64,000 bases of DNA from an uncultured Planctomycetales bacterium (GTDB lineage Bacteria > Omnitrophota > Gorgyraeia > Gygaellales > Profunditerraquicolaceae): the NCBI GenBank assembly GCA_964545575.1, contig CAZJFL010000005.1, forward strand, positions 8,617 through 72,616, written 5' to 3'. Of the stretch, positions 49,089 through 63,617 are shown piece after piece. How positions within the stretch are numbered: the first letter of the stretch is position 1; each line of letters opens with the position of its first letter. Made by a program: the position numbers and the translations under genes. The notes below the pieces were generated by a model. That model saw only the letters and a program-made list of their open reading frames with translations. It was not told where the DNA came from and searched no databases.

Positions 49089-49092
49089 AAAG

Positions 49093-50394
49093 ATGAACAT
49101 CTCTATTATAGGTTCGGGTTATGTGGGTTTAGTCACCGGCACCTGCCTTGCGGAGCTGGGCAATAAAGTCGTCTGTTGCGATAACGACATAAAAAAGATC
49201 ACGGCTCTTAAAAAAGGCATGATGCCGATATATGAGCCGGGATTGGAAGAATTGGTGAGAGCCAATGTGAAAAAGAAAAAGCTCTCCTTTACCCACAGTT
49301 TTAAAGAAGCGGTCGCTAATTCCGAGCTGATTTTTATTGCCGTGGGCACGCCCTCCCTGGAGAACGGCGATGCCGACCTGACCGGAATAGAAAATGTGAC
49401 GCGTAATATCGCCATCAATATGACCGGTTACAGGCTAATCGTGGAAAAATCCACGGTCCCGGCCGAGACCGGAGAGCGCATTAAACAGACCGTATCCAGT
49501 CACCTGCAGAAGAGAGTAAAATTTGACGTTGCCTCAAATCCGGAGTTTCTGCGGGAGGGGCAGGCAATCAATGATTTTATGCATCCGGACAGGATTGTGA
49601 TCGGCGTAGAATCCAAAAAGGCCAGGGATATGCTGGTAAGCCTTTATAAGCCTTTAAATGCGCGCCTGGTGATAACCGACATTAAGTCCGCAGAGTTGAT
49701 AAAACATGCCTCCAATTCTTTCTTAGCTACCAAGGTCTCCTTTATTAATGCCATTGCGCGTATCTGCGATAAGCTGGGAGCGGATGTGCAGGAAGTAGCA
49801 GAGGGCATGGGATTAGATAAAAGGATAGGGCAGGCATTTTTAAACGCCGGAATCGGATACGGGGGAGCTTGTTTCCCCAAAGATTTAGATGCCTTTATCT
49901 ATATCTGTAAAAGACTAGGTTATGATTTTGAATTGCTGAAAGCAACCAGGGAAATTAACCGCCAGCAGAAGAACGAGTTTTTAAACAAGATACACGATGG
50001 GCTATGGGTAATTAAAGATAAGGCTATCGGCGTCTTGGGGCTCGCTTTTAAACCCAACACCGACGACATACGCAATGCCCCGTCTCTGGATATAATAGAT
50101 GCCTTAATCGCGCAAGGCGCCAGATTAAAGGTTTACGACCCTCAGGCAATGAAAAAAACTAGAGGCCTGTTGGGTGAAAGGGTGAAGTTTTGCCGTGATC
50201 CCTACGAGGTATGCCGGGGGAGCGAATGCCTCTTAGTTATTACGGAGTGGGATGAGTTTAAGGAGTTGGATTTTTCTAAAGTCAAAAAATTGCTCAAGAG
50301 GCCGTTGGTTATCGACGGCCGCAATATTTATGACCGTAAGATCATGAAAAAATTAGGGTTTACTTATATCACTATGGGCAGGGGGGAAACCTAA
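49093..50394 (+). CDS. ugd: UDP-glucose 6-dehydrogenase (ORF track start 49027; ATG at 49093 preferred)
   Basis: MNISIIGSGYVGLVTG Rossmann N-terminus; catalytic Cys context GGACFPKD. Confidence 0.85.
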   Translation: MNISIIGSGYVGLVTGTCLAELGNKVVCCDNDIKKITALKKGMMPIYEPGLEELVRANVKKKKLSFTHSFKEAVANSELIFIAVGTPSLENGDADLTGIENVTRNIAINMTGYRLIVEKSTVPAETGERIKQTVSSHLQKRVKFDVASNPEFLREGQAINDFMHPDRIVIGVESKKARDMLVSLYKPLNARLVITDIKSAELIKHASNSFLATKVSFINAIARICDKLGADVQEVAEGMGLDKRIGQAFLNAGIGYGGACFPKDLDAFIYICKRLGYDFELLKATREINRQQKNEFLNKIHDGLWVIKDKAIGVLGLAFKPNTDDIRNAPSLDIIDALIAQGARLKVYDPQAMKKTRGLLGERVKFCRDPYEVCRGSECLLVITEWDEFKELDFSKVKKLLKRPLVIDGRNIYDRKIMKKLGFTYITMGRGET

Positions 50395-50404
50395 AAGGAA
50401 TAGT

Positions 50405-51715
50405 ATGGCTAACTTTATGAAAAGTTTCTTAAAAAGGTTAAAGAAAAAAGAGGTTAAAATTGCCGTGGTGGGCTTAGGCTATGTGGGGTTGCCGCTGGTG
50501 CTCGAGTTTATAAAAAAAGGGTTTTACGTATTGGGGGTAGATCTAGATAAAGACAGGATAGCCGGGATTCAACAGAGGAAATCATACATTACCGATGTTT
50601 CCGACACGGATTTGCGAAAAGCCATAGCAAGCGGAAGGTTTCGTGCTACGGGAGATTTTCATTTGTTAAAGCAGGTTGATGTAATTCTTATCTGTGTGCC
50701 TACGCCGCTAAAAAGAAAATATCTTCCGGATATATCTTTTATCAAAGGCGCCGTCAGAGAAATCTTGGTAAATATGAAACAGGGCGCTTTGATTATTCTG
50801 GAAAGCACCACCTATCCCGGCACCACCGAAGAGGTCATCCTGCCTTTGCTTGAATCGCGCGGCTCTCAGCACGGTAGGGATTTTTATCTCTGTTTCTCTC
50901 CCGAGAGGATAGACCCGGGAAACGCCAAATACCCGCCCCAGAAGATCCCCAAAGTTATCGGCGGCATTAATCAGGAAGCGACTACGCTAGGAAAAGCAGT
51001 TTACGCAAGTATCATTAAACAAGTCGTTCCCGTATCTTCTTCCCGGGTTGCCGAAACAGTGAAGTTACTGGAAAACACCTTCCGTATCGTTAATATCGGC
51101 TTAATCGATGAAATAGCGATGATGGCGCATAAAATGAAGATAGATATCTGGGAAGTGGTCGAGGCGGCCAAAACTAAACCTTTTGGTTTTATGCCTTTTT
51201 ATCCCGGCCCCGGCGTGGGCGGCCACTGCATACCAAAAGACCCGCTCTACCTTTATTGGAAGGCGAAAAGGTTCGGCTTCCGGTCGCGTTTTATCAAGCT
51301 CGCCTCCGAGGTAATCGCCGCTATGCCCGAATATGTGGTAGAGAGGGTCGCTAGTATTTTGAGTAAAGAAAGGATAAGCCTGGCTCAAGCCGAGATTCTG
51401 GTCTTAGGGGTAACCTATAAGAAAGATATCAAAGATTTGCGTCAGTCTCCGTCCATAGATATTATTGAAATATTAGAAAAGAAGGGCGTATCCGTTTCTT
51501 ACCATGATCCGCTGATCCCGTATCTCAAATTAAACCGCATAAATCTTAAATCCGCCGATTTAACCGCTGCCAATCTTAATAAGTTGGACTTTGTGATTAT
51601 CGCCACCGATCACACTTCGGTCGATTACAGATTTATATTAAAGCATTCGCGGCGGGTCTTTGATACCCGTAATGTCTATAAAAATATTAATCAGGGAAGA
51701 GTCTTTAGGCTATGA
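50405..51715 (+). CDS. UDP-N-acetyl-D-glucosamine/mannosamine dehydrogenase family (WbpA/WecC-like)
   Basis: VKIAVVGLGYVGLPL ... GGHCIPKD catalytic Cys context; 436 aa. Confidence 0.75.
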   Translation: MANFMKSFLKRLKKKEVKIAVVGLGYVGLPLVLEFIKKGFYVLGVDLDKDRIAGIQQRKSYITDVSDTDLRKAIASGRFRATGDFHLLKQVDVILICVPTPLKRKYLPDISFIKGAVREILVNMKQGALIILESTTYPGTTEEVILPLLESRGSQHGRDFYLCFSPERIDPGNAKYPPQKIPKVIGGINQEATTLGKAVYASIIKQVVPVSSSRVAETVKLLENTFRIVNIGLIDEIAMMAHKMKIDIWEVVEAAKTKPFGFMPFYPGPGVGGHCIPKDPLYLYWKAKRFGFRSRFIKLASEVIAAMPEYVVERVASILSKERISLAQAEILVLGVTYKKDIKDLRQSPSIDIIEILEKKGVSVSYHDPLIPYLKLNRINLKSADLTAANLNKLDFVIIATDHTSVDYRFILKHSRRVFDTRNVYKNINQGRVFRL

Positions 51716-52665
51716 AGAAAGTTTTAGTTACCGGAGGCGCAGGGTTCATCGGTTCGCACTTGACCGAGGCTTTAGTGAAAAGAGGCTATTCTGTCAGGGT
51801 CTTGGATAATTTCTCAAGCGGTAAAAGAGATAACCTAAAAGGCCTGATAAATAAAATAGATTTAATCAGGGGCGATATTCGTTCTCTCGCCGTCTGCCAG
51901 AGAGCGGCAGGAGGCATAGACCTGATTTTTCATCAGGCGGCTCTGCGCAGCGTCCCTAAGTCGCTGGCTCATCCGGCAGAATATAATGAAGTCAATATCC
52001 AGGGCACTTTAAACCTATTGCAGGCAGCGGTTAAAAATAAGGCGAAACATTTCATCTTTGCTTCCTCCAGCTCCGTCTATGGAGATGTCAAAACTTTTCC
52101 CGAAAAGGAAGATTTTGTTCCGCAGCCGATCTCTCCTTACGCCCTGACCAAGCTTACCGGAGAATATTATTGCCGGATGTTTAGTTATCACTACCGCTTG
52201 CCTACGGTGGCTTTAAGGTACTTCAATGTGTTCGGGCCCCGGCAGTCTTTAGACGACGAGTATGCCGTGGTCATACCGAAGTTTATCAGCTGCATGTTAA
52301 AAAACGAGCCGCCTCCGATATTCGGCACAGGCAGGCAGTCAAGGGATTTTACCTACGTAGAAAATGTGGTGCAGGCCAATATTCTGGCAGCGGCCAAGAC
52401 CGGGCTTAAGGGAGAGGTTTTTAATATCGCCGGCGGCAGGGACTACAGTATCTTAGAGTTAGTCAGGATACTCAACAGTATAATGGGTAAAAAAATAAAA
52501 CCGGTTTTCTTAGGCCTGCGTCCGGGGGATGTATTCAGGACTCAGGCGGATTTAACCAAGGTAAGGCGGGTTTTAGGTTTTCAGCCGAAGGTGGATTTTA
52601 TTAGCGGGCTGGAATCATCCATTAATTCGCAGACGCTGATAGATAAGCAAAATGAGGGACGCTAA
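51712..52665 (+). CDS. NAD-dependent nucleotide-sugar 4-epimerase (GalE/WbpP family)
   Basis: [13 protein letters not shown]..., YxxxK context SPYALTKLTGEYY, 317 aa extended SDR. Confidence 0.75.
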   Translation: MKKVLVTGGAGFIGSHLTEALVKRGYSVRVLDNFSSGKRDNLKGLINKIDLIRGDIRSLAVCQRAAGGIDLIFHQAALRSVPKSLAHPAEYNEVNIQGTLNLLQAAVKNKAKHFIFASSSSVYGDVKTFPEKEDFVPQPISPYALTKLTGEYYCRMFSYHYRLPTVALRYFNVFGPRQSLDDEYAVVIPKFISCMLKNEPPPIFGTGRQSRDFTYVENVVQANILAAAKTGLKGEVFNIAGGRDYSILELVRILNSIMGKKIKPVFLGLRPGDVFRTQADLTKVRRVLGFQPKVDFISGLESSINSQTLIDKQNEGR

Positions 52666-52707
52666 AACTTACGTCACTTCGTTCCGTAAGTTTTCTGCTC
52701 ATTAAAA
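52665..52707 (+). promoter_or_regulatory. palindromic motif AAAACTTACG-N11-CGTAAGTTTT followed by CTGCTCATTAAAA, filling the epimerase-uxs intergenic space right up to the uxs ATG
   Basis: Read directly; same core as the glgA upstream element at 14301-14352. Confidence 0.5.
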
Positions 52708-53640
52708 ATGCCTAAGAAAACAGCGGTGATTACCGGCGGGGCAGGCTTTATCGGTTCGCATTTATGCGACAGATTGCTTGACGCAGGTTTTAAGGTTATC
52801 TGCCTGGATAATCTGATCACCGGAAGCTTAAAAAATATAAAACACCTCTTAAGCCGCAAGGATTTTATTTTTATAAAACATAATGTGACAAAATATATTA
52901 GCCTTGCGGGCAAAGTTGACTATGTCCTGCATTTTGCCTCACCCGCTTCGCCCGATGACTATTTAAAATACCCCATCCAGACTTTAAAGGTGGGCTCCCT
53001 GGGCACGCATAATGCCTTAGGATTAGCCAAAGCCAAAAAAGCCAAGTTTCTGCTCGCTTCTACCTCGGAAGTCTACGGCGACCCGCTCGCGCACCCGCAG
53101 GCAGAAAGTTACTGGGGGCATGTCAATCCTGTAGGGGTACGCGGATGTTACGATGAGTCAAAACGCTTTGCCGAAGCAATCACCATGGCCTATCAGAGAA
53201 CCCACAAGCTGGATACCAGGATAGCCAGGATTTTTAACACCTACGGCCCGCGCATGCGTATTCACGACGGAAGGGTGGTGCCTAATTTTATTTATCAGGC
53301 CTTAAATAATAGGCCCTTGACGGTATACGGAACGGGAAAACAGACGCGCAGTTTCTGCTACGTAGAGGATTTAATTACGGGTTTGCTGGAGTTGATGAAA
53401 AGCCCCCTGAATACGCCGATAAATTTGGGCAATCCCGAAGAGTTTACGGTTTTAGCCTTAGCCAAACTGGTGATTAAATTAACCTGCGCCGGGAGCAAGC
53501 TTGTATTTAAAAGCCTGCCGCAGGATGACCCGCGCCAGCGCCAGCCGGATATTACTCAAGCCAGAAGACTCCTTAAATGGCGCCCTAAGGTTAAATTAGA
53601 AGCGGGGCTCAAGAAAACTATTGCCTGGTTTTCGCTCTAA
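52708..53640 (+). CDS. UDP-glucuronate decarboxylase (UDP-xylose synthase, UXS/ArnA-C-like)
   Basis: [38 protein letters not shown] (YxxxK) typical of UXS; downstream of ugd. Confidence 0.75.
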
Positions 53641-53714
53641 TCCCCTCCGCAGAAATCCCCAGGCTTTAGCCTGAGGATGAATGTACAGCGGAGAATTATT
53701 TCTGCTACAGGGAG

Positions 53715-53754
53715 GGAACCCCGGCCTTTAGGGCGAGGGGGTTCCACATTTTTC
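53715..53754 (+). terminator. rho-independent terminator (GGAACCCC-N14-GGGGTTCC then ACATTTTT)
   Basis: Read directly after the uxs stop. Confidence 0.6.
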
Positions 53755-53947
53755 GGCCTTGCGAGTTTGCATTGGGGTAGAGGGCATGTTATACTTTATA
53801 TAGAAATCATCCATTATTTAAGAATAGGCAGGGCAATGTTTTTATAAGTTAAATTAAGCGGTAAAATTAACCTATTCTTCACCCTTATAACAGTAAGGGC
53901 GGGCTTTAGTTACAGATAAAGCCGTAATGGAAGAATAGGTTTTTTAT

Positions 53948-53976
53948 TTGACAAAAGGCAAAATGGGTGGTATAAA
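53948..53976 (+). promoter_or_regulatory. strong sigma70-type promoter TTGACA-17-TATAAA upstream of pilin gene 1
   Basis: tttgacaaaaggcaaaatgggtggtataaata; about 30 nt upstream of the GGAGG RBS. Confidence 0.6.
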
Positions 53977-54004
53977 TAGAAAAAAGGGAGGAGGTTTATT
54001 ATAA

Positions 54005-54400
54005 ATGGGAAGAAAAAGAGGTTTTACGCTCGTAGAAATCATGATCGTAGTGGCGATTATCGCTTTGCTTGCTGCGATAGCAATACCTAACTTGCTTCAG
54101 GCAAGAAGGACTGCCAATGACGTAGCTGCCAAGGCCACCGTGCGCAGCCTTATGATTGCAGCCGAGGTATATTCCACTGCTCACAGCGGCCAATACCCAA
54201 ATACCACAACTCTGTTGGCCACATATATAACCTCAGCGCCTACCTATTGCCCAGGGCCATCACTAGTACAAGGTTTTACCTATTCCTGTACTTTGACTGT
54301 CGGGGGTTATAACGTTACTGCAGCTCCTTCGAACTTAAACGTGACAGGAACCACCACCTATTATGGTACCACAGGCGGAGTATTGATGCCGTTAACGTAA
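54005..54400 (+). CDS. pilA: type IV major pilin (class III signal, G|FTLVE), Thr-rich C-terminus, copy 1
   Basis: MGRKRGFTLVEIMIVVAIIALLAAIAIPNLL prepilin leader and N-methylation site; C-terminal disulfide pair (YCPGP...YSC). Confidence 0.85.
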   Translation: MGRKRGFTLVEIMIVVAIIALLAAIAIPNLLQARRTANDVAAKATVRSLMIAAEVYSTAHSGQYPNTTTLLATYITSAPTYCPGPSLVQGFTYSCTLTVGGYNVTAAPSNLNVTGTTTYYGTTGGVLMPLT

Positions 54401-54418
54401 GTTGTCTGCTCATTTTAC

Positions 54419-54447
54419 TTGACAAATCAGCAAGGAGGTGGTATAAA
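54419..54447 (+). promoter_or_regulatory. sigma70-type promoter TTGACA-17-TATAAA upstream of pilin gene 2 (duplicate of the pilin-1 promoter), about 180 nt before the ATG
   Basis: cttgacaaatcagcaaggaggtggtataaata read directly. Confidence 0.55.
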
Positions 54448-54604
54448 TAATTTTAATAATAAGGCGACTGGCGTTTTTTTGAGGGGGTTTCTTATCGCAG
54501 GTTGGAACAGGTAGTTATATATACATAGATTCAAAAAGATAAGAAGCCGATAAAGAAAAGCGCTAAAAAAGTCAATCTTACCTTAGAGAGGAGGCTTATT
54601 ACAA

Positions 54605-55003
54605 ATGAGAAAAAAAAGAGGTTTTACACTCGTAGAAATCATGATCGTAGTGGCGATTATCGCTCTTTTGGCAGCCATAGCAATTCCTAACTTGCTTCAG
54701 GCAAGAAGGACTGCTAATGACGTAGCTGCCAAGGCCACCGTGCGCAGCCTTATAGTTGCAGCCGAGACATATTCTACTGCTAACAGCGGCCAATACCCAA
54801 ATACCACAACTCTGTTACAGACATATATAACCTCAGCGCCTACCTATTGCCCAGGGCCATCACTAGTACAAGGTTTTACCTATTCCTGTACTTTGACTGT
54901 CGGGGGTTATAACGTTACTGCAGCTCCTTCGAACTTAAACGTGACAGGAACCACCACCTATTATGGTACCACAGGCGGAGTATTGTCACCATTAACTCCG
55001 TAA
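54605..55003 (+). CDS. pilA: type IV major pilin, copy 2 (tandem near-identical paralog)
   Basis: Identical to copy 1 except a few substitutions (R3/K3, M50/I50, V55/T55, H60/N60, A72-T/Q-T) and the C-terminal tail. Confidence 0.85.
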   Translation: MRKKRGFTLVEIMIVVAIIALLAAIAIPNLLQARRTANDVAAKATVRSLIVAAETYSTANSGQYPNTTTLLQTYITSAPTYCPGPSLVQGFTYSCTLTVGGYNVTAAPSNLNVTGTTTYYGTTGGVLSPLTP

Positions 55004-55031: not shown

Positions 55032-55061
55032 GAGGGGGAGAGTAAATCTCCCCCTTTTTTT
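55032..55061 (+). terminator. rho-independent terminator (GGGGGAGA-gtaaa-TCTCCCCC + TTTTTTT) after pilin 2
   Basis: Read directly. Confidence 0.75.
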
Positions 55062-55070
55062 AAATATTTT

Positions 55071-57032
55071 ATGTTAAACTTTAAAATTAAGTTATTCCTG
55101 TCGGTTTATCTTGCCATTGCCTGCCTATGCCTACTTTTTTACTGGGGCACACTACACAACCCTTTTATCCTGGATGACGGGGGGCTAATTATAAAAAATT
55201 CCTCAATCCTTGATTGGCATTATTGGGATAAGGCTTTTACCAGCGATATGCATTTCGGAAACATGGGCGGGGGCGGCTCTAATTTTTACCGGCCGGTACA
55301 GACACTCAGTTTCATGTGGGATTATCATTTCTGGCGCCTCAATCCTTTGGGCTACCATATTACCAATATCTTACTGCAAAGTATAGTTGCCTTCTTGGTT
55401 TTTCTGCTCGTCTATATGCTTTCTGATAAAATGCCCCTTGCTTTTGTAAGTTCTTTATTATTCGCCATTAACCCGTTGCATACAGAGGCGGTCACATATA
55501 TTTCCGGAAGAGCAGATATGCTTATGGCTGTATTTCTTTTACTTTCACTTTTATTGTTCATTAAAAGCGAAAACTCCGTGAAATATAGGAGGGCACTCTA
55601 TCTTTTATCTTCTTTATTATTATTTATTTTAGGGCTACTCTCCAAGGAGTTGGCTTTTATATTCCCTTTAGTTATACTTCTTTTTGTATTTATTTATAAA
55701 AGAAGCAATTTTAAGGACCCCTGGTATACGGCGCTGGTGATTTTTCCGTTTTTCGCGATTGATTTAATATATGCAATCACGAGGTATACGCTTTTACAAT
55801 TTAGTACCCTCTGGGTAGCGGAATTGAGCAGATATCCTTTGGTTTTAAGGATATATATGGTGCCAAAAGTATTTTTTACATATATCCGCCTGTTATTTTT
55901 CCCCGTCGGCTTGCATATGTCCTGGGGGCTGGCCGCGCCTGGCGGGATTATAGAGGTTGTCTTGTCGTGGTTTTTGTTAACAGTGTTCATAGGCGTAATC
56001 TGGCATATCTTATGCAAGTATAATAAGAAGGAAGGGTATTTTCTTTTTTGGTTGTTTTTTATATTTTTAGCCCCTCAGCTTGGGGTTTACCCTATCAATG
56101 CCTTTTTGGCAGAGCATTTCATTTATATTTCGTCAATAAGTTTCTTTGTGGCAATCTCGTATTTATTATTTAAATACTTAAGAAAAAGCTTATTATTTTT
56201 TTGCGTTTTAGCGCTATTACTGTTTTACGGAACCCTTACTTTAGCGCGCAATTACGAGTGGAGTAATCCGTTTATCTTTTATCAGGGTATCGTCAAATTT
56301 TCTCCGGATAGCTTCTTGGCCCACAATAACCTCGGCGTCCAGTATGCATATATAAATAAGGACGATTCTGCGATTGCTGAATTTAAGAAGGCAGTAAGGA
56401 TAAACCCTACCCGAATAGACGCCCGCTCTAATCTGGCTAAAGTTTATCAAAAGACAGGCAGATTCAAAGATGCCGAGAGTGAATATGCTGTACTTGAGAA
56501 AATCACGCCTTACGATAAAGCTGGCGAATTGCAGAATGAGATTGCTGTTTTATATGAAACCGAAGGCCATTTTGATAAGGCGCTTGATAGGTACAGGCTG
56601 GCATTACGTTTTAATCCGAGTATTTTTTTCCTACATTTTAACATTGCGCGCCTTACGGCAGATTCCGATAAAGCAGCCGGGGAAATAATAAAGTCATTAC
56701 AGCCGGTAGATTCCAATCAGCCTCCGGACAAAGCGCTTCTGGGAGCCGTAAAAAAATACATAAAAGAGTCAGGATACTCCGGCTGCGCTGTTTCTTTTTA
56801 TAATAATCTCGGTATAAATCTTGCTCAGGCAGGCTTTGATAAAGAGGCCATCCGTTCTTTTAAGAGGGTTTTGGAGTTATCTCCGGAATATGCTGATGCG
56901 CACTTTAATCTGGGGTTGACTTACTGGAACTGCGGGCGTAAACAAAAGGCAATATCGGAATTCAGGGTTGTATTGAAGATACAGCCACAGCACTATAAGG
57001 CAAGGGGGTTTCTTTATAATCTTGCCCGTTAG
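55071..57032 (+). CDS. GT-C-fold membrane glycosyltransferase (PMT_2/TMTC-like) with C-terminal TPR repeats, embedded in the pilin cluster
   Basis: About 11-13 TM helices, first-loop FILDDGG acidic motif and YRP motif typical of PMT/ArnT-like GT-C enzymes; C-terminal TPR repeats (AHNNLGVQYA..., AHFNLGLTYWNCG...). Confidence 0.6.
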   Translation: MLNFKIKLFLSVYLAIACLCLLFYWGTLHNPFILDDGGLIIKNSSILDWHYWDKAFTSDMHFGNMGGGGSNFYRPVQTLSFMWDYHFWRLNPLGYHITNILLQSIVAFLVFLLVYMLSDKMPLAFVSSLLFAINPLHTEAVTYISGRADMLMAVFLLLSLLLFIKSENSVKYRRALYLLSSLLLFILGLLSKELAFIFPLVILLFVFIYKRSNFKDPWYTALVIFPFFAIDLIYAITRYTLLQFSTLWVAELSRYPLVLRIYMVPKVFFTYIRLLFFPVGLHMSWGLAAPGGIIEVVLSWFLLTVFIGVIWHILCKYNKKEGYFLFWLFFIFLAPQLGVYPINAFLAEHFIYISSISFFVAISYLLFKYLRKSLLFFCVLALLLFYGTLTLARNYEWSNPFIFYQGIVKFSPDSFLAHNNLGVQYAYINKDDSAIAEFKKAVRINPTRIDARSNLAKVYQKTGRFKDAESEYAVLEKITPYDKAGELQNEIAVLYETEGHFDKALDRYRLALRFNPSIFFLHFNIARLTADSDKAAGEIIKSLQPVDSNQPPDKALLGAVKKYIKESGYSGCAVSFYNNLGINLAQAGFDKEAIRSFKRVLELSPEYADAHFNLGLTYWNCGRKQKAISEFRVVLKIQPQHYKARGFLYNLAR

Positions 57033-57125: not shown

Positions 57126-57542
57126 ATGCAAAACATAAAAGCCCGCAGTTTTGTTTTAATCATGGTTATTATTGCCGCAACGGCTTTAATTTTAAGGTTT
57201 GCCATCGGTTGTATTATAAAAATGAATATCGCGCAGAACGAATCCAATGCCTCCGTAACTTTAAAATTCATTTCCGCAGCCCTGCAAAATTATGCCAGGG
57301 ACCACAACGGTAATTTTCCATCGGACCTGGCGTTGCTAGCGAATAATACCCCGCCTTATTTAGATGATGACGATGTTGCCAAATCGCCCGTAAAAGGGTA
57401 TAATTATGTTTGCGCAAGGCTTGAGCCGTCCGGCTACAGCTGTTCGGCAACGCCGCTTAAGTGCGGCCTGACCGGGACTGCGTCTTATACTATTTCCACA
57501 GGGGGCCTGATTGTTTCTGAAGAATGTAATAAAAAAGAATAG
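57126..57542 (+). CDS. pilin paralog with degenerate prepilin signal (no Gly-1, Glu+5 deleted)
   Basis: Globular domain aligns with the major pilins (FISAALQNYARDHNGNFP / MIAAEVYSTAHSGQYP; GYNYVC / GFTYSC; TGGLIV / TGGVLM) but the N-terminus is KARSFVL-IMVIIAA instead of KRGFTLVEIMIVVAI. Confidence 0.6.
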   Translation: MQNIKARSFVLIMVIIAATALILRFAIGCIIKMNIAQNESNASVTLKFISAALQNYARDHNGNFPSDLALLANNTPPYLDDDDVAKSPVKGYNYVCARLEPSGYSCSATPLKCGLTGTASYTISTGGLIVSEECNKKE

Positions 57543-57966
57543 CGGTTTTAGCCTTCCGGAATTGATGCTGGCGGTGGCGATCCTTGCTTTTGTGCTGACG
57601 GGGATGCTCCTGCTTTTTATCAACTGCATAATAATAAATTCGACAAGCCGCTACCTGACCATTGCCACGAGCCATGCCGAATTTGTGATGGAGGATATAA
57701 GAAACAGCACTACCACTAGCGCCAATTTTAATTCTACCCGCGATGACATTATAAATAATAATCCTAATAACTGGGATTGGGATACGGCAACTATTAATAA
57801 TAAAGGCCTGGTTGCCTTAAGTGGTGAAAATATCGATACCTCAGGGACAGTCATAAACTCAACTCTCCTAGGCGATCTCCTCAAAATTACTGTCACAGTA
57901 AACTGGCAGGACAGGGCAGCGGTAGAAAGGAATACGACACTGGAAACCTTTATTGCGACGCCATGA
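57511..57966 (+). CDS. minor pilin / pseudopilin with prepilin-type N-terminal methylation domain
   Basis: KKNSGFSLPELMLAVAILAFVLTGML leader (G|FSLPE). Confidence 0.7.
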   Translation: MFLKNVIKKNSGFSLPELMLAVAILAFVLTGMLLLFINCIIINSTSRYLTIATSHAEFVMEDIRNSTTTSANFNSTRDDIINNNPNNWDWDTATINNKGLVALSGENIDTSGTVINSTLLGDLLKITVTVNWQDRAAVERNTTLETFIATP

Positions 57967-58496
57967 AAGGCATAACATTAGTAGAAATTTTGCTCACTGT
58001 CTTGATCACGAGCTTTATCGTCGCAGCTATATACGGCACCCTGACCACGGGCAACCTGACCTATCTCACTGATATGGGTATGCTGGATTTGCAGCAACAG
58101 GCGCGTCAGGGCATGGACAGGATGCTGCGCTATATCAGAGAGACCAGCGGCGCAAATATAACTTCTATAGTCCAGGATCCCCCTTCAATTACTTTTAAAC
58201 TCAACAATATCTTTACCGGCAATGTTTCGACCAGCATTACCTATAGCCTGGATCAAACTAACCACATTATTAATTTTAACAGTACTCCGGCTATACCCGG
58301 TTATAACATACCCAAAATAGCAACCGGCATAACTTCATTGAGTTTCTTCTGCTGCCCGGGAGGTGTCAACTGTGGTACCAGTTGCGACGCCAGTACTACC
58401 GTAGTGCAAATTCAAATCGTAGCTAACAGCACTGTAATGAACAAGCCTTTGGCATTTAACCTAACCGAGAAAGTGAGGTTGAGAAATGGGAATTAA
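57963..58496 (+). CDS. minor pilin (PilW/GspJ-like)
   Basis: MKGITLVEILLTVLITSFIV prepilin leader (G|ITLVE); 177 aa. Confidence 0.7.
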   Translation: MKGITLVEILLTVLITSFIVAAIYGTLTTGNLTYLTDMGMLDLQQQARQGMDRMLRYIRETSGANITSIVQDPPSITFKLNNIFTGNVSTSITYSLDQTNHIINFNSTPAIPGYNIPKIATGITSLSFFCCPGGVNCGTSCDASTTVVQIQIVANSTVMNKPLAFNLTEKVRLRNGN

Positions 58497-59679
58497 TAAT
58501 AGGCGCGGTATAACACTCTTAGCTGCATACCTGGTAATAGCAGTCCTGGCTATTTTAGGCACTGCCTTTGTGGTGCGCAGCATCTCCGAAGGCCTGACCA
58601 TAAAAAAACATGCGGATTCAAGCAACGCTTTTTGGATTGCGGAGACGGGTATACAGAAAGCCTTGTGGGAGAAAAATTATAACAATTGCGCAAACTGCAC
58701 TAGTTGTGGTTCCAGCCTTTGCCTGAATGGAAATTTAGCTTCGGGTAGCTATAGTGTGACTATCAGCGGTACGGTAATTACCTCAGTTGGCACTTCTTCT
58801 CTGGGCGCAATCAGGAGAATCAGGGTTGATACCATAGGCGGCTCTCCGTTTACTTATGCGATGTTCGGGGCAAGCTCCATATATATGACAAACAACGCCC
58901 ATACCGACAGCTATGATTCTTCCTTAGGGCCTTACGGCGGCGATAACGCATATCATAACGGAGACGTCGGCACTAACGGCACGGCTACGGGCGCGATAAC
59001 CATATTAAATAACGGCGTCATAGAAGGAGATGCTAATACCGGCCCGGGAGGGACAATCGAGAAGTCGCAAAATGCCGAAATTACCGGAGATATAACCCAC
59101 GACAATAATATCTCATTACCTCTGGTTTATGCCCCGCAGGGTTTTACTACAGAGCCCGGAGGAGACCTGAATGTGTCCGGAGACGAGACGCCGACGCTTA
59201 ATTCAGGCGATTATAGATACAACTCCATAAGCATAAGCAATAATGCCATATTGACTATCAGCGGCACGGTAAGAATTTATGTGACCAGCACCGCTCAAGC
59301 GCTAGAGATCCTCAATAACGCGCATCTCAATATCGCTAGCGGGGCTAATTTAGTCCTTTATAGCGACGGTAAGTGCGATCTGGGCAATAACGGATTAGTG
59401 AATAATACTGCAAAGCCGGAGAATTTTGTCTTATGGAGCGCTTATTCCGGAAGTAACGGCGTGCAGATTAACAATAACGGAAATATGTACGGCGTAATCT
59501 ATGCCCCCAACGCAAACATCTCGGTTACTAATAACGGCAGCATATTCGGCTCTATTATAGGAAATGAACTGAGTGTTTCAAATAACGCGCATGTTCATTA
59601 CGACGAACATTTACCTCAGGTGTTATCTTATCCGGAAGGAAATTCCAAGATTTCCGTTAAGAACTGGCAGGAACTATAA
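58486..59679 (+). CDS. PilX-N-domain large minor pilin / putative pilus-tip protein with Asn/Gly-rich beta-helix-like repeats
   Basis: RRGITLLAAYLVIAVLAILGTAFVVRS...NAFWIAETGIQKAL (PilX_N-like); Cys cluster NCANCTSCGSSLC; repeated NNGxI/NNAHL units. Confidence 0.6.
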   Translation: MGINNRRGITLLAAYLVIAVLAILGTAFVVRSISEGLTIKKHADSSNAFWIAETGIQKALWEKNYNNCANCTSCGSSLCLNGNLASGSYSVTISGTVITSVGTSSLGAIRRIRVDTIGGSPFTYAMFGASSIYMTNNAHTDSYDSSLGPYGGDNAYHNGDVGTNGTATGAITILNNGVIEGDANTGPGGTIEKSQNAEITGDITHDNNISLPLVYAPQGFTTEPGGDLNVSGDETPTLNSGDYRYNSISISNNAILTISGTVRIYVTSTAQALEILNNAHLNIASGANLVLYSDGKCDLGNNGLVNNTAKPENFVLWSAYSGSNGVQINNNGNMYGVIYAPNANISVTNNGSIFGSIIGNELSVSNNAHVHYDEHLPQVLSYPEGNSKISVKNWQEL

Positions 59680-59739
59680 AATGTTTTTTAAAACTCTTAA
59701 ATTTAGCCGCTAGTTTGGCTAAGAAAGGGAGGCCGGAAG

Positions 59740-61077
59740 ATGAAAATAAATAATAAACGCGGGATAGCCCTGATAGCCGCTTATATGGTGATTGCGGTTT
59801 TGAGTTTCTTGAGCGCTGCCTTTGTGATCAGGAGCACTTCTGAGAGCCGGACAATTCGCGGGTATGAAAATTCCAACAAGGCATTCTGGCTTGCAGAGGC
59901 CGGTATCCAGAAGGCGCTCTGGGACATAAATTATAATGGCTGCAGCCAGTGTTGCGGTGTGCCTTACACGGCCTGTACTCACGCCTGTTCTACGCCGTGG
60001 TGCATGCAGATCACTGCCGATGGTTATGATGTGAAAAAAGACGGCTCGACGATTATTTCCACTGCTACTGTCGGGGAGGCTCCGTCTCCGCGGGTCACGC
60101 GCACAATTCAGGTAACGCTTGGCACCGGCACAACGCCCAAACCTTTTACTTCTCCGATTTTTGGAAATTCCTCGATACATATGTATCAGAATGCATTGAC
60201 GGATAGCTACGATTCTTTAAAAGGACCTTACGAGGACCAGCTCGGGGCTAATCGTTCAATGAATGGCAGTGTAGGTACAAACGGAAGTATGCCAGGAGTT
60301 GTCACCATAGATAATAACGGCTATATATATGGCATGACAACTACCGTAGGAGGAACAGTAGAGAAGGCTAATGGCGCTTACATTTATTGCCAAGCTTGCC
60401 CACTAGGCGGAGAAGAATGCGAGAACGACTGTATAAACAATCTTGCTAAGACTCGGGATTTACCTCTTATCGATGCTCCTGATGAGCTTAAAAACGCGCT
60501 TACTGAAGGGCCATATACGGTTCTTAAGAGTGCGTCCGCGATTTTACCCATGGGCGACCACCGTTATGATTCAATTAACATAGGGATTGGTGGGACATTG
60601 AATGTCAGCGGTAAGACGCGGCTCTACCTTACCGCGGCACAAGCAATAGATATTGGTAATAATGGAGTAATCCATATTATGCCGGGAGCCAGCCTGACAA
60701 TCTATACTACAGGTTCCGCTAATCTGGGGAATAACGGTTTGTTCAATGATACGCAATTTCCGAAGAATTTCATACTTTACAGCACGTATTCCGGGCCAAA
60801 CGTAATGACTATTTCTAATAACGTTGATTGGTACGGAGCGATTTATGCCCCTAATACGAATATAACAATCACTAATAACGGCCGCCTCTTTGGCGCTATC
60901 GTGGGCAACAATCTTAATGTTTTTAACAATGCGCAAATTCATTTTGACGAACAGCTCCAGACTGTAACGGGAACAGAAACACCCCCCCCCTCGGAGAAAC
61001 CATCCATAACCAGCTGGCAGGAATGCAAGTACCCAGACTGTCATCAAGACCTAGGCGGAGGCGCGGGAGGCCTGTAA
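59740..61077 (+). CDS. paralog of the 58486 gene: PilX-N-domain putative tip protein with Cys-rich module
   Basis: KRGIALIAAYMVIAVLSFLSAAFVIRS...KAFWLAEAGIQKAL; CSQCCGVPYTACTHACSTPWC; C-terminus NNGRLFGAIVGNNLNVFNNAQIHFDEQL parallels the upstream paralog. Confidence 0.6.
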   Translation: MKINNKRGIALIAAYMVIAVLSFLSAAFVIRSTSESRTIRGYENSNKAFWLAEAGIQKALWDINYNGCSQCCGVPYTACTHACSTPWCMQITADGYDVKKDGSTIISTATVGEAPSPRVTRTIQVTLGTGTTPKPFTSPIFGNSSIHMYQNALTDSYDSLKGPYEDQLGANRSMNGSVGTNGSMPGVVTIDNNGYIYGMTTTVGGTVEKANGAYIYCQACPLGGEECENDCINNLAKTRDLPLIDAPDELKNALTEGPYTVLKSASAILPMGDHRYDSINIGIGGTLNVSGKTRLYLTAAQAIDIGNNGVIHIMPGASLTIYTTGSANLGNNGLFNDTQFPKNFILYSTYSGPNVMTISNNVDWYGAIYAPNTNITITNNGRLFGAIVGNNLNVFNNAQIHFDEQLQTVTGTETPPPSEKPSITSWQECKYPDCHQDLGGGAGGL

Positions 61078-61080
61078 AAC

Positions 61081-62079
61081 ATGGATTTATTTAAGCCCAA
61101 AGAAAAATTTTCGCTGGGGCTGGATATCGGCACCTCCCAGATAAAGCTGGTAAAATTAAAGCTGGGCAAGGATACGACCGAACTTTGCGCCTTTGCCATT
61201 GAGCCGTTTCAGGACAGCCCGCTGGCGGCGTTAAAGAAAATTGCCGCGGCAGAAGCGGTTAAGAAAGTAAACATCTCTGTTTCCGGCCCCGCGGCAATTA
61301 TCAGGTATGTAAACCTGCCCCGCATGAACACGGAAGAGCTGAGGCAGTCATTAAAGTTCGAGGCGGAAAAACATATTCCCTTCCCCGCATCCGAAGTAAA
61401 TACCGATGCCTCTATTTTAAAAGCCGACTTACCGGATAATAAAATGCTGGTTTTGATCGCCGCGGTAAAAAAAGAGTTCGTCAACCAGCGCATAAAATTA
61501 GTCGAAGAGGCCGGTTTAAAAGTTAATGCCATAGATATCGATTCGCTCGCCATTATCAATGCCTTTAATTTCAATTATCCCGGAAGCGATAATCCTAAGG
61601 CCGTGGGGTTATTGAATATCGGCGCGACCTATAGCAACCTCAATATTCTGGAGGGGGCTCTCCCGCGCCTGAGCCGCGATATACATATTGCCGGAAATAG
61701 CTTTACGCGGAAGGTTTCCGATGCCCTGACTTTGGACAAGGAGCCTATAGAGGCATTAAAGGTCAGCCCGGATAAAGAGCATGCCGATAGGTCAAGCGCT
61801 AGTGTTGACGCATCTTTTTTGCAATTAGTCGGTGAAATAAGGACATCTTTCGATTATTATGAAAGCCAGAGCGCTTCTTCCGTAACCAAGATTTTCTTAA
61901 GCGGGGGAGCCAGCCTTTTTCCCGGGCTTAAGGATAACTTGGCTAATATGTTGGGCATAGAAGTAGATTATTGGGACCCCATAAAGCAGCTCACTCTTTC
62001 CAGCAGAGTCGATAGAGAAGCCATAAAAGCAGTGTCTCTGGAATTAGCCACGGCAGTAGGCCTGAGTTTGCGTTTTTAA
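61081..62079 (+). CDS. pilM: type IV pilus assembly protein PilM (actin-like ATPase fold)
   Basis: FSLGLDIGTSQIKLVKL N-terminus; 332 aa; followed by pilNOPQ. Confidence 0.85.
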   Translation: MDLFKPKEKFSLGLDIGTSQIKLVKLKLGKDTTELCAFAIEPFQDSPLAALKKIAAAEAVKKVNISVSGPAAIIRYVNLPRMNTEELRQSLKFEAEKHIPFPASEVNTDASILKADLPDNKMLVLIAAVKKEFVNQRIKLVEEAGLKVNAIDIDSLAIINAFNFNYPGSDNPKAVGLLNIGATYSNLNILEGALPRLSRDIHIAGNSFTRKVSDALTLDKEPIEALKVSPDKEHADRSSASVDASFLQLVGEIRTSFDYYESQSASSVTKIFLSGGASLFPGLKDNLANMLGIEVDYWDPIKQLTLSSRVDREAIKAVSLELATAVGLSLRF

Positions 62080-62081
62080 AA

Positions 62082-62657
62082 ATGATAGAGATAAACCTTC
62101 TACCTCAGGAATTAAAACATAAACCTAAGAAACCGGGTATCGACTTTGAGTCTAAAGAGACGCTTTATTTTATCCCGCTTGTTGTAGGTGTAATTTTAAT
62201 CCTGCATGTTTTCCTTGGCGGCATACTTGTTTTAAGGAATTTTCAGGCTGTCGGGATGAACGCAAGATGGCAGAAATTGGAGTCGCAAAGAAAGGCCTTG
62301 GAGGTTTTTCGCAGCGAAGCCGCGCATCTTTCGGCGGATGCCTTAGCCCTGCAGCAAATCCATGATAAAACCATAAAATGGGCCCCGAAATTAAACAAAC
62401 TAAGCCTTGATTTACCCTCGGGGATATGGTTCAGGAGCATTAATTTTACCTCCAATCTTCTGGACATCCGCGCATCGGTGGTATCCCTAAAGATGAGCGA
62501 GTTGGTTCTGATTAACCAGTACATAGATAATCTTAAGAAAGATAATGATTTCTTTGCCGATTTCTCAAAACTTGACCTTGATTCCGTGGAAAAAAAGAAA
62601 ATCGGCGGCTACGAAATAGCCGAATTCTCACTGGCCGCTAAGCCGAAAGAAAAATGA
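62082..62657 (+). CDS. pilN: type IV pilus assembly protein PilN
   Basis: MIEINLLPQELK N-terminus, single TM, 191 aa. Confidence 0.8.
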   Translation: MIEINLLPQELKHKPKKPGIDFESKETLYFIPLVVGVILILHVFLGGILVLRNFQAVGMNARWQKLESQRKALEVFRSEAAHLSADALALQQIHDKTIKWAPKLNKLSLDLPSGIWFRSINFTSNLLDIRASVVSLKMSELVLINQYIDNLKKDNDFFADFSKLDLDSVEKKKIGGYEIAEFSLAAKPKEK

Positions 62658-63220
62658 CGCAGATATTAAGCAAATTACAAAATTTTCCCCTCGATAAGAA
62701 GAAAATAATAGCGATCCTGGCCTTTGTCGCAGTGCTTGTTTTCTTAGACGTGTCTTTTATAATCAAGGCACAGATTAAAAGCATAAAGAATGTTTCGGGA
62801 AAAGTCGCAAATTTAAAGAAAAAAATTGATACACTAAACAATGAGCTCGCCCTAATGAAGCAGGTGCAGGTAGAACGCAAACTTAAGGTGCCGCCCAAGG
62901 TAAAAAAAATAATTTCCGGAAGCGACCTTCCCGCTCTGATACAGGATATAGATGCGCTGGCAAAGAAGAATAACGTCAGAGTCACCCAGATAAAACCCGG
63001 TTGGAGCATGGGCGATCAAAAAATCGCCGTCGGTAATTTCTCCCCGGTTTCCATACTGCTGGAGATGAATTGTAATTACCATCAGTTCGGCAGCTTTATA
63101 AATGATTTAGAAAATGCGCAGAATTTTATAGCGGTTGAACAGATGGAGATCGTGCCGCTTGGGAATGATTGTTTTCAGCAAAAGATAAAGCTTCTTTTAA
63201 GGACATATGTTAAAAAGTAG
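62654..63220 (+). CDS. pilO: type IV pilus assembly protein PilO
   Basis: Single TM, coiled coil, 188 aa; position between pilN and pilP. Confidence 0.7.
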   Translation: MTQILSKLQNFPLDKKKIIAILAFVAVLVFLDVSFIIKAQIKSIKNVSGKVANLKKKIDTLNNELALMKQVQVERKLKVPPKVKKIISGSDLPALIQDIDALAKKNNVRVTQIKPGWSMGDQKIAVGNFSPVSILLEMNCNYHQFGSFINDLENAQNFIAVEQMEIVPLGNDCFQQKIKLLLRTYVKK

Positions 63221-63617
63221 GATTAGTTCGGGGTTCAGCGTTCAGCGTTCAGTGCTTTTCGTCATAGGTATTTTGTTATTTTCTTCATTGCTAAAGTTTT
63301 CTTTAGCGCAAAACGATTATGTTTATGACTCAAAAGGCAAGCGCGACCCTTTTATTCCTCTGGTAAGCCCCGCAGGTGTGTTGGTGAAATTAGATAAGGA
63401 TGAAGGGACGGTGGCGTCTGAGCTAAAAATCGAGGGTATCATCTTCGACAAAAACGGAGCCTCCTATGCCATTGTGGGCGCAAAAGTAGTCAGGGTCGGG
63501 GATTCAATCACCGACGGATGCCAAGTTTTAAAAATAGAACAGGATAAAGTTATTTTTATTAAAGAGGGCGTGCCTTTGGAGATCCATTTGAAGGAGGATA
63601 GCAATAATGCTAAATAG
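63207..63617 (+). CDS. pilP: type IV pilus assembly lipoprotein-like PilP
   Basis: Signal peptide, RDPFIPL motif, beta-rich C-terminal domain; immediately upstream of pilQ. Confidence 0.7.
   Translation: MLKSRISSGFSVQRSVLFVIGILLFSSLLKFSLAQNDYVYDSKGKRDPFIPLVSPAGVLVKLDKDEGTVASELKIEGIIFDKNGASYAIVGAKVVRVGDSITDGCQVLKIEQDKVIFIKEGVPLEIHLKEDSNNAK
63233..63253 (+). repeat. GTTCAGC-GTTCAGC-GTTCAGT heptamer array in the pilP 5' region (encodes GFSVQRSV)
   Basis: Read directly; same GTTCAGN family as in hisF and pdxA. Confidence 0.85.

Follow-up and report, generated by a model that had tools for sequence, protein, structure and literature searches.

A TPR-bearing GT-C-type glycosyltransferase encoded behind the type IV pilin genes of an Omnitrophota bacterium is a candidate pilin-modifying enzyme

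In an Omnitrophota bacterium, two tandem type IV pilin genes are followed directly by a gene for a large membrane protein ending in tetratricopeptide repeats (TPR), and proteins of this kind are currently named in the databases only 'tetratricopeptide repeat protein'. What does such a protein do behind pilA, and on which molecule does it act? Type IV pili are present in nearly all Omnitrophota, where their supposed role is attachment to host cells. Based on the analysis of the surrounding 64,000-nucleotide stretch of DNA (the window), structure prediction, and a synteny survey of 80 loci from species-representative genomes, we consider it reasonably likely that the product is a GT-C glycosyltransferase of the inner membrane that serves specifically the type IV pilin of the neighboring upstream genes, acting as a periplasmic O-glycosyltransferase. 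We found no description in the literature searched of pilin glycosylation in Omnitrophota, or of a pilin-linked GT-C enzyme besides TfpW of Pseudomonas aeruginosa.

Architecture and fold of the enzyme

55071..57032, + strand: open reading frame of the TPR-bearing membrane glycosyltransferase, ATG start, 653 aa
55071..56282, + strand: membrane domain, residues 1-404; 11 TM helices, GT-C fold (predicted), first periplasmic loop with invariant D35 D36
56283..57032, + strand: C-terminal TPR domain, residues ~405-653; ~7 repeats, predicted periplasmic

The initial annotation had described a 653-aa protein with a FILDDGG motif and a C-terminal TPR array, and this description holds: FILDDGG occupies residues 32-38, and TPR families cover residues ~404-650 (Pfam; TPR_2 E=9.8e-28, and many others). 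The predicted model contains 11 TM helices and 15 TPR helices, and the topology we infer has a cytoplasmic N-terminus and a periplasmic C-terminal TPR domain. The best match of this domain is the TPR of OGT, and it is probably the acceptor-binding module of the enzyme. No paralog of the gene was found elsewhere within the window.

Residues 1-404 matched no Pfam or NCBIfam family, even at E<=10, and comparison with PDB sequences returned nothing at the same threshold, either by phmmer or with a 23-sequence profile. That the membrane domain is PMT/TMTC-like is invisible to such searches, and was therefore established by structure prediction combined with motif comparison. Both structure models that were generated are confident (pLDDT 87.9 and 83.8). 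Foldseek retrieved only TPR proteins with the full-length model; with a TPR-less, domain-only model the best 28 matches were all GT-C enzymes, the closest in the PDB being the protein O-mannosyltransferase Pmt4. As modeled, the membrane domain is a member of the GT-C glycosyltransferase superfamily with its polytopic fold, and the first-loop acidic motif of the superfamily is present as D35 D36 in the loop after TM1. Across 56 full-length and 23 domain homologs, D35 D36, R74 P75, E139, R147, K192 E193, R260, H282, and H349 are invariant; in the predicted topology these residues lie in periplasmic loops or at the ends of helices, and they correspond to motifs M1-M4 and M7 of the TMTC enzymes.

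TMTC1-4, the animal cadherin O-mannosyltransferases, likewise combine a GT-C domain with TPR; the shared layout is an 11-helix membrane part and, behind it, a TPR array located on the non-cytoplasmic side (for the window protein, by inferred topology). The agreement extends to M1 (DD at 35/36, against 31/32 in TMTC3), M2 (SHKSYRP; S70-N-F-Y-R-P75, against 66-72 in TMTC3), the TM3 string 'LLFAxxPLHTE' against 'LLFAVHPIHT', M3 (RxD; R147-A-D149, against 143-145 in TMTC3), and part of M4 (KE[T/Q]xxT), in which K192-E193 is kept and the T/Q and T are not. In contrast, M7 (ERxxY, EL5) reads A-E-H349-F-I-Y, with an invariant His replacing the Arg, and M5 (DW, EL4) has no DW counterpart; the loop taken as EL4, judged by position rather than by alignment with TMTC, carries the invariant H282 ('LHMS'). 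The window protein further differs in having fewer TPRs and a likely acceptor that is a pilin rather than a cadherin, and residues 1-404 do not match Pfam DUF1736 at E<=10, nor do any of 23 relatives, although human TMTCs match it at E<1e-30. Comparison with the PMT family (GT39, e.g., yeast Pmt4) gives only 11-14% identity; Pfam PMT and PMT_2 are unmatched by the window protein, only 3 of 23 relatives reach PMT, weakly (best E=3e-06), and the TPR domain stands where PMTs carry a luminal MIR beta-trefoil.

The pilin cassette and its conservation

53948..53976, + strand: promoter-like site before pilA1 (TTGACA, 17 nt, TATAAA), read by eye
54005..54400, + strand: pilA1, first copy of the major type IV pilin gene; 131-aa prepilin with leader MGRKRG/FTLVE; Pfam N_methyl E=1.7e-08; NCBIfam prepilin cleavage/methylation domain
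54419..54447, + strand: promoter-like site before pilA2 (TTGACA, 17 nt, TATAAA), read by eye
54605..55003, + strand: pilA2, second copy of the major type IV pilin gene; product of 132 aa, almost identical to that of pilA1; Pfam N_methyl E=1e-09
55034..55061, + strand: terminator-like hairpin after the stop codon of pilA2 and before the start of the glycosyltransferase gene, GGGGGAGA-gtaaa-TCTCCCCC followed by a T-run; from a consensus scan
57126..57542, + strand: p138, a degenerate pilin paralog without a prepilin cleavage site (KARSFVL where the pilin has KKRG/FTLVE)
57511..57966, + strand: PilV-like gene, first of the minor-pilin block 57511..61077; Pfam N_methyl in the block, NCBIfam PilV weak
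57963..58496, + strand: 177-aa ORF of the minor-pilin block
58486..59679 and 59740..61077, + strand: two PilX_N/DUF7305 proteins of the minor-pilin block; Pfam DUF7305, PilX_N
61081..62079, + strand: pilM; Pfam PilM_2 E=2.4e-46
62082..62657, + strand: pilN, by position
62654..63220, + strand: pilO; Pfam PilO E=7.9e-08
63207..63617, + strand: small ORF in the PilP position; weak T2SSB match

Both upstream genes match Pfam N_methyl and both translations contain 'NVTAAPSNLNVTGTTTYYGTTGG', confirming the tandem pilin pair reported at the outset, and the placement of the glycosyltransferase gene before minor-pilin-like genes was also as described; pilM and pilO follow further downstream. The Ser/Thr-rich C-terminal segments noted in these pilins proved to be conserved: pilin orthologs are 42-71% identical across loci, Ser and Thr make up 26% of the globular part, and the Thr/Ser-rich C-terminal tail, TYTA[ST]TGGVL[TS]PL, is near-invariant.

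In a neighbor-joining (NJ) tree, the window's glycosyltransferase gene falls in a single clade, 36 of whose 37 members are pilin-linked and none of which (0/37) has an adjacent paralog. Pilins at the surveyed loci were sought by tblastn with the window's pilins; those of two loci (L004 and L074) have broken N-termini. The co-occurrence of the gene with pilA in related genomes, which the initial annotation had suggested checking, is borne out, pilA lying directly upstream at 34 of the 35 orthologous loci of the clade, and the orthologs of this clade are not scattered far from pilin loci. Moreover, pilin type co-varies with glycosyltransferase clade. The gene order of the pilus alignment genes (pilM, pilN, pilO, and the PilP-position ORF; 61081..63617) is kept across loci, but at six loci (L014, L018, L021, L025, L027, and L038) the glycosyltransferase-p138 pair occurs without a nearby pilM, and pilA is kept in all of these except L018; the pair is thus tied to pilin genes rather than to the assembly machinery.

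The gap between pilA2 and the glycosyltransferase gene is 68 bp, and a perfect-stem hairpin with a T-run was found in the corresponding gap at 23 of 45 pilin-linked loci, compared with 0 of 45 length-matched control segments taken from inside the glycosyltransferase gene. The hairpin at 55034..55061 likely attenuates read-through into this gene. The consensus scan does not list the site at 53948..53976, as it accepts only T in position 6 of the -10 hexamer.

Candidate acceptors and rival explanations

The sole characterized precedent for such a gene pair is TfpW of P. aeruginosa group IV strains (Pa5196/PA7), a pilin D-arabinofuranosyltransferase whose acceptor is the major pilin, and whose gene directly follows pilA in all species that carry it. 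[quoted passage not shown] The architecture, which had been supposed new for a pilin-modifying enzyme, is consequently not, as TfpW already combines all of its elements with the same genomic position. The two differ in that the present host belongs to a different phylum, and in that the strict YX6PFX7P motif near the TPR is absent from the window protein, the one string that comes near it being Y395-x4-P-F-x10-P412, of which Y395 is not kept in the family consensus. The accessory gene differs as well: we rejected p138 as a TfpX/TfpY-type accessory, since TfpX and TfpY are proteins of ~235 aa with three TM helices, and p138 is a single-TM pilin paralog. D-Araf pathway genes (DPPR synthase/DprE1/DprE2), which are unlinked to tfpW in P. 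aeruginosa too, were not found among the ORFs annotated between 6117 and 53640 with a length of 150 aa or more. Finally, the enzyme is near-universal within its Omnitrophota clade, and tfpW is strain-specific in Pseudomonas. With the gene fixed after pilA, pilin glycosylation would be a conserved trait, i.e., a regular part of the pili in this clade, rather than the occasional, strain-specific modification seen in Pseudomonas.

A periplasmic position for pilin glycosylation is also found with TfpO/PilO and PglL, polytopic membrane enzymes as well, and tfpO too lies directly downstream of pilA, its product targeting the C-terminal residue of the pilin. However, these enzymes belong to an unrelated family and transfer a preassembled undecaprenyl-diphosphate-linked O-antigen unit, and no TfpO/PglL-type domain was detected in the window glycosyltransferase with Pfam or NCBIfam.

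We propose that the pilin genes would be transcribed from their own strong promoters, and that the hairpin after pilA2 would let only a fraction of transcripts reach the enzyme gene, yielding little enzyme and much pilin. The enzyme would be inserted N-terminus-in, its 11 TM helices bringing to the periplasmic side both the TPR domain and a set of invariant polar residues (D35 D36, SNFYRP, R147, K192 E193, H282, and E348 H349 Y352). The TPR domain may then bind the globular head of the membrane-anchored pilin before assembly, and the catalytic site may use a polyprenyl-phosphate-sugar donor to place a sugar on a pilin Ser/Thr, for which the conserved C-terminal tail is the leading candidate site. 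The modification could serve, for example, to mask pili from phages or to tune host-cell attachment.

A more specific version of this proposal, which we regard as tentative, is that Omnitrophota pili are routinely glycosylated by enzymes that form a bacterial branch within the TMTC family and have a modified donor site (His for the phosphate-binding M7 Arg, and His in the metal-binding loop), with p138, a pilin mimic that cannot be cleaved and stays in the membrane, serving as their adaptor or primer. The locus pairs a bacterial TMTC-like enzyme with a small, defined candidate acceptor, and because no TMTC structure is among the PDB structural matches (Foldseek), the enzyme-pilin pair could help to show how a TPR-bearing GT-C enzyme recognizes its substrate; if the TMTC-branch assignment is correct, the pair would provide a small, genetically defined system for learning how such enzymes choose folded-protein substrates, and pilus glycosylation would contribute to the way in which these ultra-small epibionts or predators attach to their hosts. 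Thousands of genes now named 'tetratricopeptide repeat protein' would gain a more useful annotation.

The pilin-like gene next door offers the best-surviving alternative, namely that the enzyme is a real glycosyltransferase but that its main acceptor is p138, the additional pilin-like gene product encoded behind the enzyme at many loci, or the minor pilins, and not the major pilin. p138 matched no Pfam or NCBIfam family; it is 28% identical to pilA2 over 123 aa (E=2e-04), has a single TM segment and the fold pattern of a pilin, and contains a segment, 'TGTASYTISTGG', resembling that of the pilin. Its linkage to the glycosyltransferase gene, which it follows at 30 of 30 loci of the clade, is slightly tighter than that of pilA, and it persists beside this gene at L018, where pilA and pilMNO are absent, so that the true acceptor, or a second one, could be p138 or some other pilin-like protein. 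Nonetheless, pilA is nearly as tightly linked and its type follows the enzyme clade, eight divergent pilin-linked loci have pilA and no p138 (L039, L041, L044, L046, L049, L050, L053, and L072), and TfpW modifies the major pilin. We therefore consider p138 or the minor pilins unlikely as the main acceptor.

Still less probable is a general periplasmic protein O-glycosyltransferase, similar to actinobacterial PMT or to general O-glycosylation systems, which would act on many exported proteins and whose position at a pilus locus is incidental. The best structural match being Pmt4 is consistent with this explanation, and so is the size of the superfamily: 98,451 representatives were retrieved at E<=1e-3, and most of the paralogs in the 80-locus survey are not linked to pilin genes, so that family membership alone does not give function. 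The more distant paralogs, however, form pilin-free tandem arrays of up to 9 genes (L073 and L082), which suggests a narrow acceptor range for each, as in TMTC1-4; a general enzyme would also have no reason to co-vary with pilin type, and the place after pilA is kept in 34 of 35 species-level genomes of the clade, with an attenuator hairpin recurring between the two genes. A non-catalytic pilus assembly factor, in which the TPR would act in the manner of the secretin pilotins PilF/PilW/Tgl and the membrane domain would be a mere anchor, is very improbable, since those pilotins are small outer-membrane TPR-only lipoproteins, and the window protein begins with an 11-TM domain, lacks a lipoprotein signal, and scores well below the cut-offs of the pilotin families (Tgl, 66.3 vs 225 bits; PilW, 56.3 vs 154).

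Sugar-nucleotide genes and lipid-linked donors

49093..53640, + strand: sugar-nucleotide operon with ugd, a second UDP-sugar dehydrogenase, a WbpP-type 4-epimerase, and UXS; context only
29001..30293, + strand: fusion of a SAM methyltransferase with a GT2 domain of the polyprenyl-phosphate glycosyltransferase-like kind; Pfam Glycos_transf_2 plus methyltransferase

The enzyme labels first given to the upstream operon were correct: it encodes two proteins of the UDP-glucose/GDP-mannose dehydrogenase family, a WbpP/WbgU-type 4-epimerase, and a UDP-glucuronate decarboxylase/UXS (E=2e-109 against human UXS1). Its proposed role as the glycan supply of the glycosyltransferase was not upheld. None of 28 loci of the window's clade has ugd/UXS genes upstream of the pilin cassette; such an operon was seen in that position at four divergent loci (L040, L041, L049, and L050). 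In the window, the pilin genes are set off from the operon by a terminator-like hairpin (read by eye) and by promoters of their own. GT-C enzymes, moreover, use donors that are lipid-phosphate-linked, not nucleotide sugars.

The same observations make it highly improbable that the enzyme is an ArnT-like lipid or LPS modifier, which would transfer a pentose or uronic-acid derivative from the ugd/UXS pathway to lipid A or another envelope glycolipid; ArnT (GT83) is a 13-TM enzyme whose periplasmic domain is small and carries no TPR; it acts on a lipid acceptor and belongs to an arn operon, but no ArnB/C/D/E/F genes were found near the cassette or beside ugd/UXS, and the TPR-bearing GT-C enzymes with known substrates (TMTC and TfpW) act on proteins.

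For the pilin-directed glycosyltransferase that we favor, a possible source of the lipid-linked sugar donor, judging from sequence relationships, is the GT2 protein encoded at 29001..30293. It is the only polyprenyl-phosphate-sugar synthase seen in the window, and its best PDB relatives are dolichol-phosphate-mannose synthase (5mlz, E=7.5e-26), ArnC, and GtrB. The gene lies 25 kb from the cassette and appears to be paired with its own membrane ORF (30283..31596).

Gene order around the enzyme gene

Conserved gene order strongly supports a link between the enzyme gene and pilin genes, and the protein probably acts in periplasmic pilin O-glycosylation. The initial annotation had proposed this function, with the upstream sugar-nucleotide operon as a possible source of the glycan precursor, and translation reproduced the position, strand, length and FILDDGG motif it gave for the enzyme. 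The features considered here are as follows:

54005..54400 and 54605..55003, +, near-identical prepilin genes pilA1 and pilA2, each with an N_methyl match, directly upstream of the enzyme gene
55071..57032, +, enzyme, 653 aa, FILDDGG at residues 32-38
57126..57542, +, p138, a degenerate pilin paralog of 138 aa, first downstream of the enzyme gene
then, by Pfam/NCBIfam, genes for a PilV-like minor pilin, a 177-aa ORF and two PilX_N/DUF7305 proteins
further downstream, pilM, a gene in the pilN position, and pilO
upstream of the pilin genes, the sugar-nucleotide operon: two UDP-sugar dehydrogenases, a WbpP/WbgU-type 4-epimerase and a UDP-glucuronate decarboxylase

Homologs point to Candidatus Omnitrophota as the source lineage. 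Eighty loci encoding relatives, taken from species-representative genomes, were probed with the window's own neighbouring proteins. Among the 37 loci whose enzymes are at least 41% identical, and with each count limited to loci with enough flank, a pilin gene lies within 800 bp upstream on the same strand in 34/35, a p138 homolog downstream in 30/30 and pilM within 7 kb downstream in 18/23; a second paralog is adjacent in none of the 37. The orthologs thus do not show placement far from pilin loci with conserved non-pilin neighbours, the arrangement that would have spoken against the proposal. Five loci carry pilA, the enzyme gene and p138 with no pilM nearby, indicating that the conserved unit is a three-gene cassette and not the whole pilus operon.

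In a neighbor-joining tree, 36 of the 37 members of the window enzyme's clade are pilin-linked; L041, L049, L050 and L044 form a second pilin-linked cluster, smaller and in another part of the tree. In contrast to the orthologs, only 8/38 distant relatives (30-37% identical) are pilin-linked. An exhaustive profile search with the membrane domain (residues 1-404) returned 98,451 representatives at E<=1e-3; 13,615 of them pass E<=1e-30, and only about four score near the window's clade. The membrane domain is therefore part of a very large superfamily in which the pilin-linked group is a single narrow branch.

The distant relatives often stand in tandem arrays, head-to-tail and with no pilin genes nearby in L073 and L082 (nine copies each, the maximum) and in L045 and L081 (three each), suggesting a large expansion of acceptor-specific enzymes in some Omnitrophota. 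At the divergent locus L044 (7985..12103), a PilC-like gene precedes pilA, and a tandem pair of GT-C+TPR genes (494 and 701 aa) stands between pilA and the minor pilins.

Fold, catalytic motifs and comparison with TfpW

TPR repeats (residues ~404-650) are the sole Pfam/NCBIfam matches of the enzyme; residues 1-404 have none even at E<=10, and matched no PDB sequence as a single sequence or as a 23-sequence profile. A faint family-level signal comes from Pfam PMT, reached by 3/23 relatives (best E=3e-06), and from precomputed PMT or PMT_2 matches on a few database relatives. The predicted structure has 11 TM helices, and the polar residues among those invariant across homologs (D35 D36, R74 P75, H96, E139, R147, K192 E193, R238, R260, H282 and H349) all map to every other loop or to the same helix ends. 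This one-sided distribution, together with a basic N-terminus and basic inner loops, would make both the catalytic face and the TPR domain periplasmic. Full-length prokaryotic homologs of the TMTCs, the GT-C + TPR O-mannosyltransferases of animals, have been noted in the literature and are uncharacterised; the published TMTC motif set was compared with the enzyme family.

Published TMTC motifs and their counterparts in the enzyme family
M1, DD: D35 D36
M2, SHKSYRP: S-N-F-Y-R-P (70-75)
TM3, LLFAVHPIHT: LLFAxxPLHTE
M3, RxD: R147-A-D149
M4, KE(T/Q)xxT: K192-E193; T/Q and T not retained
M5, DW: no DW; invariant H282 in that loop
M7, ERxxY: E-H-F-I-Y; His in place of the phosphate-binding Arg

The residue numbers of M1-M4 are close to those in TMTC3, and structure and motifs together support the GT-C + TPR assignment made initially. 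This architecture had been considered new for a pilin-modifying enzyme, a claim contradicted by TfpW, the pilin D-arabinofuranosyltransferase of Pseudomonas aeruginosa group IV, which by its published description shares both architecture and placement: at 646 aa it has 11 TM helices, a DDX motif in periplasmic loop 1 and a large periplasmic TPR domain at its C-terminus, its membrane part was best modelled on ArnT, and in every species that carries tfpW the gene directly follows pilA. Unlike TfpW, the window enzyme lacks the YX6PFX7P motif in its strict form, and where TfpX/TfpY are three-TM accessory proteins, the accessory gene here encodes a single-TM degenerate pilin (p138). Among the window's ORFs of at least 150 aa annotated between 6117 and 53640, no D-Araf genes were found, and those of P. 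aeruginosa are likewise unlinked to tfpW. The literature searched highlights T4a pili as a near-universal feature of Omnitrophota and relates them to attachment to hosts, with no mention of pilin glycosylation there. The enzyme is best filed beside the TfpW-type pilin-linked GT-C+TPR enzymes, to which it is likened by description; its catalytic motifs are TMTC-like, and no such enzyme had been described from its phylum.

Probable acceptor and expression of the cassette

The Ser/Thr-rich segment originally quoted is present in both upstream pilins. Main-clade pilins (those beside enzymes of the window enzyme's clade) are short, at ~125 aa when mature; they contain two Cys, Ser/Thr makes up 26% of their globular part, and their C-terminal tail, T-Y-T-A-[ST]-T-G-G-V-L-[TS]-P-L, is near-invariant. 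We infer this tail to be the leading candidate glycosylation site. Pilins beside the second enzyme cluster end differently, so that pilin type co-varies with enzyme clade. The main rival reading is that the true acceptor is p138 or other pilin-like proteins. p138 homologs occur in L004-L038, L040 and L074, including L018, the sole pilA exception, where pilMNO are also absent yet p138 is retained. p138 is 28% identical to pilA2 and has KARSFVL in place of KKRG|FTLVE; with Ser at -1, Glu5 missing and no prepilin cleavage site, it would remain anchored in the inner membrane.

The window carries two tandem copies of the major pilin gene (54005..55003, +), with nearly identical coding sequences and a ribosome-binding site ahead of either copy, unlike most orthologous loci, which have a single pilin upstream and a more divergent one after the enzyme gene. 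A TTGACA-N17-TATAAA promoter-like site, read by eye, also precedes each copy. Between the pilA2 stop and the enzyme start, a strong hairpin followed by a T-run (55034-55061) resembles a terminator; when a perfect stem of 5 bp or more and a subsequent T-run are required, such hairpins occupy the pilA-enzyme gap in 23/45 pilin-linked loci, compared with 0/45 length-matched control stretches taken from within the enzyme gene. The arrangement fits abundant pilin and scarce enzyme, and matches what has been reported for the accessory genes of pilins in Pseudomonas and elsewhere. By eye only, a further GC-rich hairpin (GGAACCCC...GGGGTTCC) with a T-run lies at ~53715..53755 (+), just past the UXS stop codon, between the sugar-nucleotide operon and the pilin promoters.

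Donor supply

Sugar donors of GT-C enzymes are lipid-phosphate-linked, so the nucleotide-sugar operon could contribute only via a polyprenyl-phosphate glycosyltransferase. Sequence matches bore out the enzyme labels first given to the operon (UDP-glucuronate decarboxylase vs human UXS1, E=2e-109). Its proposed role as the glycan-precursor source did not hold as a conserved link: the ugd/UXS block is upstream of the cassette in 0/28 main-clade loci, where the commonest upstream neighbour is a MiaB-like radical-SAM gene (18/28), and in four divergent loci (L040, L041, L049 and L050). Only these four share the block LptD-like, ugd, (epimerase), UXS, pilA, enzyme (window 46944..55003), and the enzymes they encode show only 33-37% identity to that of the window; similarity of the enzymes and order of the flanking genes thus disagree. 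Two neighbouring diguanylate cyclase genes (GAF-GGDEF and GGDEF; 43642..45968, +) lie a few kb ahead of the pilus locus; the genes after them encode a ROK-family kinase and an LptD-like outer-membrane protein.

A GT2 gene 25 kb from the cassette (29001..30293, +), fused to a SAM methyltransferase, has dolichol-phosphate-mannose synthase (E=7.5e-26), ArnC and GtrB as its best solved relatives. Its end is overlapped by an unannotated ORF (30283..31596) for a polytopic membrane protein of 437 aa that has no match in Pfam, and the two look like a separate pair of lipid-linked-sugar synthase and membrane transferase.
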